Made by a program: the position numbers and the translations under genes. From Pelomyxa schiedti (Eukaryota; Protista; Evosea): a DNA stretch of 64,000 nt. Every line of letters starts with the position of its first letter. Position 1 is the first letter of the stretch. The stretch spans positions 1 through 64,000 of the forward strand of contig JAHLWZ010000843.1 of assembly GCA_020536535.1 (NCBI GenBank). Reading direction: 5' to 3'. Shown in pieces: positions 21,761-24,937 of the stretch. The notes under the pieces are model-generated. The model was not told the origin of the DNA. It saw nothing but the letters and a program-made list of their open reading frames with translations, and did no database searches.

Positions 21761-24700
21761 CTACGACTGTAACATTTTGTTTACGATCCAGTCCAGTCCC
21801 TTTTTTCGGATGCAGTATATTAGAACATTACCAAATGAAAGGTGTGGAGATGAACCTCATATAGTCCATCACCAGAAGTAGCACAACAGGCCTGGACAAA
21901 CCACTTCCTTGTCCTTATGTGGTGCAGACCAAGTTGGTCAGTTAGTTCGCCTACCGGCATGGCAGCCGGCAAATCTTGTTTGTTTGCAAACACAAGCACA
22001 ACGGCATCGCGGAGTTCATCCTCGGACAGCATTTTCTGAAGCTCTTCGCTGGTTTCTCCTATGCGTTCCCTGTCATTCGAGTCTACAACGTACATAAGAC
22101 CCTGGGTGTTTTGGAAGTACTAATGAAAGTGAGTGAGAGAAAGAGTGTGAATGTTGGGGTTGTTTAGTGTAACCAAGTGAGTGTTCATACATGTCTCCAT
22201 AGGGGTCTAATTTTGTCTTCTATGGTGAATTAGTTGAGAACATAGTCAAAGTCGTATTGGAGCAAGTCAAGTTCTTACCGCCTCCAGTATCCCACACTGT
22301 AAGGTTGACGTTTTTGTAAGTTACTGTCTCAACATTGAATCCAATGGTAGGTACTACAATGAACAAAGTGCGTTAGAATCAAACCTGTTTTTGGCGCTCG
22401 GGATAGAACTTACTGGTGGTAACAATTTCACCAAGTTTAAGCTATCGAAGACTTAGGTGAGGGAAAATGATGATGTGGTCAACATACTTTATACAGAATA
22501 GTCGTCTTTCCTGCAGCATCTAAACCTGAGGGTGAATTGAGCAAAGGAAACAGTTGAAGGTATGGTTTATAGGTACGCATACCAACCATCAACAAGCGGA
22601 ATTCTTTCCTTTTCGGTAACCATCCTTGAACAGTTGTGAACGTGACTGAGGCCGCTCGCTGAAGGAGTGAGGGCCTTCGAGCATCTTCTTCATCCCGAGC
22701 TCTCAGTCTTTTAGCGAACTGGTGAGAGTGTGGCCAAATATGGAAGGAAGCTACGACCTTTCGTAATAAGTGTGAGTGACGGGATGGTTCATAAGATATC
22801 GAAGTTTCCAGATCTCTTGCCCTGCCAAGCTGCTCGTTCCAGAGGCTCTGGTTTATGTTAAGTGGTATTTTTTTCACTTTGAGAATGTACAGGGTCTCTG
22901 GAATCAACGTTTTGGCAATTTTGCATATTCGTCGGTTTGGAGAACCAAGTTCCGTAGCCTCCCAGTCATAGGCGGGGGATACCCTCACATCCCTCAACGT
23001 CTTAGATTGAGCTGGGGAAAAAAAGGAATACCTGGTGTATAGCACCCTCCATAATTCATTTGAGGAAGAGAGAACTCTGAAAGCACTACTTGTCCGCCCT
23101 ATGGATATGAGGTCCTAAAACTGGGATGAAAACTGGCAATGATCCATCAAAATTCAAACTTTGGCACTCAAGTACAGAAGAATCTCATGAAGAACTTCAC
23201 GAGGAAAATTCTTGAGGGTTCCAAAGATAGATTGTTGCTCCTGAGATGGCTTATTCATCTGACTGGAACCACCTGATATTGCCGCTGTATGCAACCACCC
23301 ACAAGAGACCTGAAAGTAGTTATTTGGGAAAATTGACGGAGTCCTGCATACCGCTTTAATATTCGTGTTAGACATCGTAAACGCTTCGACAAGCGTAGGT
23401 GCAATATACTCTTGTTTCAAAAATTGACCACACTGTCCATTTTTACTTGAACCAAAAGTGTATCTGTCTTTATGTTAAAAAGAAAATGAGAAACTGTTCT
23501 CAACTTGCATTTTTCCAGAACTTGTAACTATGGCACTATGTGCCGCACTAAATGCTCCATTTGCTGACATGGCGATAACTCTATCACCTCGTGTGCACAG
23601 TTCAACATTGAAGGAGTCAATAGGCCTGCAAAAATATGATTCCCAGTATTATCTTCCATCGCCCATACGTGGGAACCAGAATATTTTGATCGACGGTGTG
23701 GCCGCACTGGCTCCTTCTCCCCATTGATAACACTGTATTATGTAACCCCTCAGTACTTGAAGTTGGCACAGTAGCGAGCAGTGTGTGATTGTCACCACAT
23801 GCCACAATTTCAATTGCTGGAGTCCCTGTTGGCAAAGGAACTGGTTGTGGAGTCGTTCTATCAATGACATCGCCAAGCCCAAGCTGGCCAAACCTAAGAA
23901 AACGAGTGAGATCGTTAGCAGGAGATCGCTTTCGTACCTATTTGAACCACAAGTAAATACGGTACCAGTTTCCGTCATATATGCAACATGTTGACCACCG
24001 CAAGACACTTTCCTGATTGGTTGCGTGAGTTTAACTTGCTGGGGATTCTCTCTATCCTATTGGAAGAGTTATTAACAGAGAAACAAGATTTTATCCATAC
24101 TTTTGTGTCACCCAACCCAAGCTGCCCTTTAGAATTAGTGCCCCATGAGAAAGCACTACCATCAGAACAGATAACTACAGAAAAGGCACCACCAGCACTA
24201 ATGTGAGAAGGTCTCGAAAGAGATTCCAGTGGAGTATGAAGTGCCTGCACCACAGTTGGTGCTAGTGACTTGCCACATATTTCACCCCACATCCACACAT
24301 CACAGACGGGAGAAGCTTCAAGTGCGAGGCAGTGCATGCCACCACAAGCAATTTCAGCAATTACGTGGCCGTACAATCTAATAAGAAATAATTAAAATTC
24401 CCATGGAAGTTATATTGTCACATAAATAAGAGCCTAATACACACCCAACAACCGGGCGAGGGATTGGCTTCTCCTGACAAGCCCAAGGCGTTGCACCCAC
24501 CATATTATTGGTAGTGGCAGTAGCAGTAGCAGCAGAATTTGTAGCAGCACCTTTAGGCGGTGCTCCCTTTGCTGGGGTAGCGCCCTTGGCTGTTGCAGGA
24601 TTGGTTTTTGATGCAGTGACGGCGGAGGGATTTGGGGTGGGAGTGGATACAGGTGTAGTTGTTCCACTGCCGCCTCCGCAGGAGTATACTTCCCCTGTGG

Positions 24701-24937
24701 AAGACAGAATCAAGGTGACTGCACCACCACAGGAAACAGACTTAGCATTAACTCTGGAACCAAAAAGTGTAGCCACAAATGCTGGGCACTGTCTAAAAGC
24801 AAAAAAATGTTAATTTATTGTTTGCTTTTAAAAAAAGGCAAAACAAACATAGGTCCCTATGACCTTTCGATGGAATCACCGTGGCCAAGTTGGCCGTGGG
24901 AGGCAACGCCCCACGTGTAGACGAGGCCCGCCGGCAT
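21761..24937 (-). CDS. RCC1-repeat + F-box + C-terminal Arf GTPase fusion protein
   Basis: RCC1 repeats ([60 protein letters not shown]); F-box [26 protein letters not shown]; open frame into [74 protein letters not shown]. Confidence 0.88.

Follow-up and report, generated by a model that had tools for sequence, protein, structure and literature searches.

Canonical Arf1 has an N-terminal glycine that carries myristate and a Gln71 used in catalysis, and Arfs, which drive membrane traffic in all eukaryotes, are usually seen as lone, myristoylated switches dependent on that glutamine. TRIM23/ARD1, a holozoan protein, departs from this scheme: a ubiquitin-ligase module with its own RING (RING-B-box-coiled coil) precedes an Arf1-derived domain without myristate, in which Lys458 replaces Gln71, and the protein is reported to cycle GTP. 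In yeast Saf1 and in FBXO24 an F-box precedes an RCC1 propeller, which is assumed to select the substrate in RCC1-F-box proteins. The metazoan protein FBX8 (F-box plus Sec7) ubiquitinates ARF6 through a Skp1-cullin-F-box (SCF) ligase (PMC6727740). A survey of the Arf family described fusions to F-box and BTB domains as repeated enlistment of Arfs for ubiquitin circuits and considered architectures of this type lineage-specific as a rule (Vargova et al., 2021; PMC8358228); its supplementary table 1 lists MbaArf1e and MbaArf1f with "RCC, F-box-like", AcaArf1g and TtrArlX1 with Kelch, RCC and F-box, and EgrArf1h with RCC1. In the present study, we analysed a window of 64,000 nucleotides of Pelomyxa schiedti (assembly GCA_020536535.1, contig JAHLWZ010000843.1, positions 1 to 64,000), in which a reverse-strand gene at 21761..25027 encodes an RCC1-F-box-Arf protein with glutamate at the position of Gln71.

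The 794-residue product (P0001) is letter for letter GenBank KAH3746196.1 of Pelomyxa schiedti, and its domain order of RCC1, F-box-like and C-terminal Arf1 is that of MbaArf1e, MbaArf1f and AcaArf1g (XP_004334879.1; P0139 in our set). It resembles TRIM23/ARD1 in having a ubiquitin-ligase module N-terminal to an unmyristoylated Arf domain without Gln71, whereas TRIM23 lacks RCC1. FBX8 is likewise an F-box protein with a C-terminal Arf-pathway module and offers a precedent for such an SCF receptor, but its module is an exchange-factor domain that catches an Arf, whereas in P0001 the Arf itself is the module. F-box and RCC1 propeller also occur together in Saf1 and FBXO24, in the reverse order to the N-terminal propeller, F-box and Arf of P0001. 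With canonical Arf1 the Arf domain of P0001 shares the G motifs, the switch surfaces and up to 80% identity; it differs in being internal and in belonging to a family with glutamate or proline at position 71. The architecture is therefore already tabulated; what is new is that Gln71 is lost across the family in a pattern that follows lineage, together with signs of an origin shared by amoebozoans and euglenozoans. No description of that loss was found in literature searches, which left most subscription papers out of reach, or in the main text of the survey, which does not mention RCC1, glutamine, Q71, catalytic or Pelomyxa (Vargova et al., 2021; PMC8358228).

The transcript evidence consisted of assembled RNA contigs, not reads, and runs X3 and X4 represent one single-cell sample. 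One X4 contig (record 12, 1782 nt) reaches from 24267, within the RCC1-coding region, to beyond the final Arf-domain intron and thus places RCC1 blades, the F-box and the Arf domain on a single RNA, as an earlier reading of the window from its letters alone (the sequence-only reading) had supposed; an X3 contig (record 9, 1615 nt) shows identical joints from 23936 on. The joint in switch II (22219/22279), which skips 59 nt with GT-AG ends, was found in both RNA runs. It lies within a split codon (22218..22279, reverse strand; G before and AA after the intron at 22278–22220) that encodes Glu685, and the spliced switch II is a stretch of 13 letters (not shown) holding this residue. On alignment to an Arf1 chain from PDB, Glu685 falls on Gln71 and Thr682 on Val68. 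An alternative intron of 62 nt, ending at the next AG and giving WDTGG-DKIR, was ruled out by the RNA joint, as was retention of the intron, which gives a stop. Because the exon after this intron is only 29 nt long, below the 31-letter bridging rule, part of the evidential load is borne by a length sum: positions 49–1773 of X4 record 12 comprise 1725 nt, equal to the hand-added sum of exons with the 59-nt intron, compared to the 1722 nt predicted with the 62-nt alternative. No other letter occurred at the Glu685 codon in the RNA or in run X1. The sequence-only reading, which had proposed an Arf without Gln71 and this 59-nt intron, had named beforehand two outcomes that would speak against it, a glutamine codon in cDNA and a separate Arf transcript starting near 22.7 kb; neither appears in the RNA contigs. 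Run X5 contributed a small share, with four short matching pieces confined to the RCC1/F-box part, and is uninformative on switch II. Run X1 or X4 departs from the window by a single letter at 22577, 23460, 23737, 23754 and 24977, none of these positions lying in switch II; the differences are probably allelic.

The RNA-guided gene model has 18 exons and 17 short introns, all 17 backed by joints in RNA contigs (15 in the main part and two at the 5′ end), among them a GC-AG intron at 23464..23508 (reverse strand) whose joint was seen in contigs of three runs from two studies. Overlapping contigs connect the first two exons with the Arf domain, no single contig spanning both. In the contigs examined, the introns and the region above 25004 had no RNA cover; the joints themselves are spliced RNA. 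Since the RNA contigs end at 24889, the start codon is not fixed, and three in-frame ATGs are candidates: 25027 (the GenBank start), 24973 and 24937. Of the gene span first proposed, 21761..24937, the end of the coding sequence at 21761 stands, and its start is one of these three. The proposal that the frame runs open from the F-box into the Arf domain was right for the DNA, where an open frame of 211 codons is present (22479–23114), but this is not the coding path: it contains three RNA-confirmed introns (23031–22993, 22890–22848 and 22757–22708; 39 + 43 + 50 = 132 nt), and the exon 22847–22758 is translated in a different frame. A preliminary 820-aa model containing a single long exon was ruled out by the RNA joints.

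Pfam matches on the spliced protein gave the order RCC1, F-box and Arf, in line with the earlier proposal: an RCC1-like domain (E 1.7e-63; WD40_RLD 215.6 bits, cut-off 150), F-box-like at 490–531 (36.3 bits, cut-off 24.3), F-box at 487–527 (31.3 bits, cut-off 20.5) and Arf at 628–790 (E 2.4e-73), with no RING, B-box or coiled-coil match. An AlphaFold2 monomer model built on the 32-row family alignment described below had a mean predicted local distance difference test (pLDDT) of 81 and a predicted template modelling score of 0.56, the latter suggesting confident domains without a fixed mutual arrangement; a single-sequence fold had given pLDDT 33, and the alignment-based model was used instead. 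The RCC1-like part (residues ~36–466; 23274..24922, reverse strand as for all features of this gene) is predicted to form a seven-bladed propeller, mostly at pLDDT 85–98, with a Thr/Ala/Pro-rich insert (97–161; 24474..24668) that is predicted to be disordered (pLDDT <50) and a lengthened Gly-rich loop in the next-to-last repeat (396–407; 23538..23573), identified by pattern match, that serves as a family marker. The F-box (487–531; 23034..23213), interrupted by the intron 23159–23115, has its helical fold in the model and is followed by a helical linker (532–606; 22677..23033) containing the three introns named above, and by a segment (610–627; 22614..22667) of low model confidence (610–626 at pLDDT <50) in place of the N-terminal helix of Arf1. 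The Arf1-like GTPase domain (628–790; 21776..22613) retains the G1 motif GxxxxGK(T/S), Thr48, Asp67 and Gly70 of DxxG, and NKxD. Within the single spliced open reading frame it begins at residue 628, with no Gly2 or free N-terminal helix, and the linker exons hold no ATG-Gly, which bears out the earlier statement that this C-terminal Arf cannot be N-myristoylated. In Foldseek searches the G domain matched Arf1; the modelled Arf fits GTP-form Arf1 chains at a root-mean-square deviation of 0.8–1.0 and a GDP-Sec7 chain at 3.8, a weak indication given that predictions lean to common forms.

The family was collected with residues 225–794 as query, which matched 701 proteins; every hit among the best 120 of these with both RCC1 and Arf was taken, blind to residue 71, giving 32 rows including the query (P0126 and P0131, which matched RCC1 only, were set aside, and 13 additional members of the clusters were left out). 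The named sources span 11 genera, namely Pelomyxa (11 rows), Mastigella, Mastigamoeba, Acanthamoeba, Luapelamoeba, Cochliopodium, Arcella (2), Pyxidicula, Copromyxa, Papus and Apiculatamorpha (2), and nine of the 32 rows have no genus name. The first nine genera represent three main branches of Amoebozoa, and Papus and Apiculatamorpha are euglenozoans. Protein searches put the number of Pelomyxa paralogs at 11 or more. All 32 rows matched RCC1 and Arf in Pfam, 28 matched F-box-like at E ≤ 0.01, and four to five also have Kelch repeats.

Glutamine at position 71 is absent from 31 of the 32 rows: the residue is proline in 18, glutamate in 10, and isoleucine, glycine, alanine or glutamine in one each, the single glutamine row (P0125) also being without Trp66/Asp67. 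All 10 glutamate rows come from the archamoebae Pelomyxa, Mastigella and Mastigamoeba and fall into two well-supported subtrees of a quick tree built with residue 71 masked, and the 19 rows from outside these three genera have proline (18) or glycine (1). The surroundings are conserved, residues 66–81 around this position being Arf1-like in 27–32 of the rows (Phe82 excepted). Gly70 and Phe51 are kept in all 32, Trp66, Tyr81, Thr31 and Asn126/Lys127/Asp129 in 31, and Asp72, Lys73, Ile74, Leu77 and Thr48 in 30, so that on this alignment residue 71 is the sole switch or nucleotide-binding residue replaced across the family. As a control, the glutamine is kept in 127 of the 135 Arf motifs found in 118 further long Arf matches; in one part of the published alignment, counted by eye, it is present in 22 of 26 unfused rows of the Arf1 group and in none of four F-box-fused rows (Vargova et al., 2021; PMC8358228). 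Independent evolution as a one-off, which the sequence-only reading had inferred, is not supported: the design with glutamate or proline at position 71 occurs in 11 named genera, and the Mastigamoeba and Acanthamoeba cases were already in the supplement of that survey.

Other fused Arfs bear on what the loss means. The published alignments have glutamate in MbaArf1e and MbaArf1f, proline in AcaArf1g, AcaArf1i and BsaArf1e, lysine in TRIM23, asparagine in the F-box-Arf1 TpyArf1f, and leucine, alanine and asparagine among the three Naegleria BTB-Arfs NgrArf1j, NgrArf1k and NgrArf1l (Vargova et al., 2021; PMC8358228). The varied residues of the Naegleria proteins and TpyArf1f suggest that Gln71 was lost repeatedly in ubiquitin-linked Arf fusions. 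They also fit an explanation without regulatory meaning, in which a fused, off-membrane Arf is no substrate of Arf GTPase-activating proteins (ArfGAPs), Gln71 has become useless, and proline or glutamate merely suits the position where the switch II helix begins, in a static scaffold. Fused Arfs of several origins do lack glutamine and differ in what replaces it (Lys, Leu, Ala, Asn), and the modelled switch II helix of P0001 begins at residue 686, directly after Glu685; proline and glutamate are favoured at helix starts. A position free of constraint should vary, however, yet proline occupies it in 18 of 19 non-archamoebal rows that are only 31–43% identical to the query. We therefore consider such a relaxed site improbable.

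Instead, we propose that these proteins may be SCF substrate receptors with an ArfGAP-resistant, GTP-state Arf as bait, a reading drawn from sequence comparisons that we consider about evenly balanced between right and wrong. The F-box would bind Skp1; the C-terminal Arf would bind GTP and resist hydrolysis driven by ArfGAPs; and the GTP-Arf would hold readers of Arf-GTP (ArfGAPs, coats and other effectors) for ubiquitination. Proline has no side chain able to stand in for glutamine, and Arfs have no intrinsic hydrolysis and use Gln71 (bioRxiv 10.1101/2024.12.20.629688; PMC3012027). Since the nucleotide motifs and switch surfaces are kept and the catalytic residue is mostly proline, the domain may bind GTP and Arf partners and yet not be silenced by ArfGAPs. 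In typical F-box proteins the substrate is bound by the part C-terminal to the F-box. The Arf has that position, and AcaArf1i and BsaArf1e, F-box-Arf proteins with no RCC1 in the sequences shown (the F-box of BsaArf1e seen by eye), have the same proline (Vargova et al., 2021; PMC8358228); on both grounds the Arf may well be the substrate-binding part. Accessory docking would then fall to the RCC1 propeller and, in some members, to the Kelch propeller, as the same proline in proteins without RCC1 suggests. The earlier idea that the RCC1 propeller acts in cis is a guess; a complex prediction of propeller and Arf domain gave a score of 0.01, run without alignments, and was counted neither way.

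The two ends of the protein may also have the opposite division of labour. The RCC1 propeller would then select the substrate, and a GTP-Arf with a leftover amphipathic helix would serve as an address that puts the SCF on Golgi or endosomal membranes. Propellers are commonly substrate receptors, and the best Foldseek matches of this one were the RCC1-like domains (RLDs) of HERC1/HERC2 and UVR8 (E ~1e-30; template modelling score 0.84–0.85 over the target for the HERC RLDs), near folds that include HERC ligase RLDs, one with a bound peptide motif; RCC1, the Ran exchange factor, ranked below the HERC, UVR8 and RPGR domains, at 20% identity. Many rows have, before the G domain, a stretch bearing Phe/Trp and Lys/Arg like the N-terminal helix of Arf1, but only 19 of the 32 rows have a hydrophobic moment there above that of a control window (0.43 vs. 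0.38 in P0001), in P0001 the stretch is modelled at pLDDT <50, and F-box-Arf proteins without RCC1 share the proline. These points make a membrane address unlikely in our view.

Several observations weigh against the Arf being a GTP-locked bait. TRIM23 is reported to cycle as a GTPase that auto-ubiquitination stimulates and that the mutation K458I inactivates (PMC12075517), this mutant being tabulated beside Arf1 Q71L (PMC9810446); because TRIM23 has lysine at this position and is nevertheless described as active, loss of Gln71 alone is no proof of a GTP lock. The counterpart in Ras is equivocal: Q61E had raised intrinsic GTPase activity in one source (PMC10515638) and approximately 8-fold lower hydrolysis in older work (PMC6813200). 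The 32 rows are not independent, 11 being Pelomyxa paralogs and P0127 and P0139 nearly identical, and four rows had no F-box-like match in Pfam. Glutamate and proline are said to be the only two non-transforming substitutions at Ras codon 61, the proline part alone being given in a review. Ras Q61P hydrolyses GTP slowly, yet is non-transforming (PMC6813200), so that slow hydrolysis need not equal an effector-competent state. Nor is the loss of glutamine restricted to ubiquitin-linked fusions, as P0119, an Arf joined to a 2-oxoglutarate-Fe(II) oxygenase, has lysine at position 71, tandem-Arf proteins vary, and four of the 26 unfused rows lack it; an Arf-oxygenase fusion of this kind is named in Emiliania (Vargova et al., 2021; PMC8358228). 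Finally, the bait model gives no account of how an internal Arf without myristate would be loaded with GTP. In a separate observation, another Pelomyxa protein, P0018, has two N-terminal tandem Arf domains, the first with lysine and the second with glutamine at position 71, followed by a C-terminal part that matches no assigned domain.

Some of these points favour a switch like that of TRIM23, in which the Arf turns over GTP by other means (glutamate as a base, auto-ubiquitination or a domain in cis) and toggles the ligase. TRIM23 itself, the raised activity reported for Ras Q61E and the retention of all nucleotide motifs agree with this, but proline, present in 18 of 32 rows, is neither a base nor a water-positioning residue, and among the 25 of 27 Pfam families listed for the 32 rows none was GAP-like. 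We consider such a switch improbable. The bait, the membrane address, the TRIM23-like switch and the relaxed site partly overlap.

The RCC1-F-box-Arf family likely has one origin, judging from the shared RCC1 loop, the shared proline and the grouping of the Arf domains. Of the 32 family rows, 23 carry the lengthened-loop pattern, the three named euglenozoan rows all being among them; the outgroup of 148 RCC1 proteins, with 1500 normal repeat motifs, gave two matches. In this comparison the pattern was written after viewing the family, and the outgroup, drawn from a search of 1.84 billion representatives, is dominated by giant multi-RCC1 repeat proteins. By eye, the published sequence of EgrArf1h of Euglena has a comparable loop and a stretch resembling an F-box. 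With leave-out hidden Markov models of the RCC1 parts, the three named euglenozoan rows scored 49–63 bits compared to an outgroup best of 63 and median of 37, which does not set them clearly apart from other RCC1 proteins; with the F-box added they scored 71–86 vs. 59 bits, the outgroup being without F-box. In a quick tree of Arf domains alone (residue 71 masked; P0132 and P0139 left out), 26 of 30 rows formed one group with an SH-like approximate likelihood ratio test support of 86. In the quick tree that holds the two glutamate subtrees, masked in the same way, Papus and Apiculatamorpha grouped with four other rows at 98, and Mastigamoeba P0132 shared a 100%-supported subtree with P0001. A second Arf-only tree (21 of 32 family rows, residue 71 masked) was unresolved, with seven label changes and the Arf of the window among canonical Arf1s; a single clade was not rejected by the approximately unbiased test (p 0.68). 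Transfer between protists is a possible source of the shared family. More tentatively, and with a somewhat lower expectation than for the bait itself, the family may descend from an ancient Arf paralog that predated the split of amoebozoans and euglenozoans, possibly present in the last eukaryotic common ancestor and lost in animals, fungi and plants. It would be a pseudo-catalytic SCF receptor degrading Arf-GTP binders, marked by Pro/Glu71 and the RCC1 loop, with removal of Gln71 repeated whenever an Arf joins a ubiquitin-ligase module (F-box, BTB or TRIM).

Two forward-strand genes flank the fusion. The divergent neighbour (25056–27534) encodes a T4 Rnl1-like RNA ligase (PHROG 562, E 1.6e-28; weak PDB matches to T4 Rnl1), followed by a nucleotidyltransferase-like Gly-Ser…Asp-x-Asp motif seen by eye, and its likely start is approximately 155 bp from that of the Arf fusion. 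The convergent neighbour (19415–21540) has pieces like a DEAD-box helicase with degenerate-looking motifs (by eye) and a long Pro/Ser/Thr insert; the tested pieces had no Pfam or PHROG match, and RNA contigs extend over its 3′ part.

In retaining the docking residues of Arf1 and losing just the catalytic one, this protist family is a natural counterpart of the laboratory mutant Q71L. If the proteins are SCF receptors with an Arf bait, they would tie the Arf cycle to targeted degradation, a link so far known only from TRIM23 and FBX8 in animals, and would bring into the Arf family a candidate ancestral member, which the latest survey treated as unconnected, lineage-specific curiosities. The family-level pattern is directly testable in Acanthamoeba.

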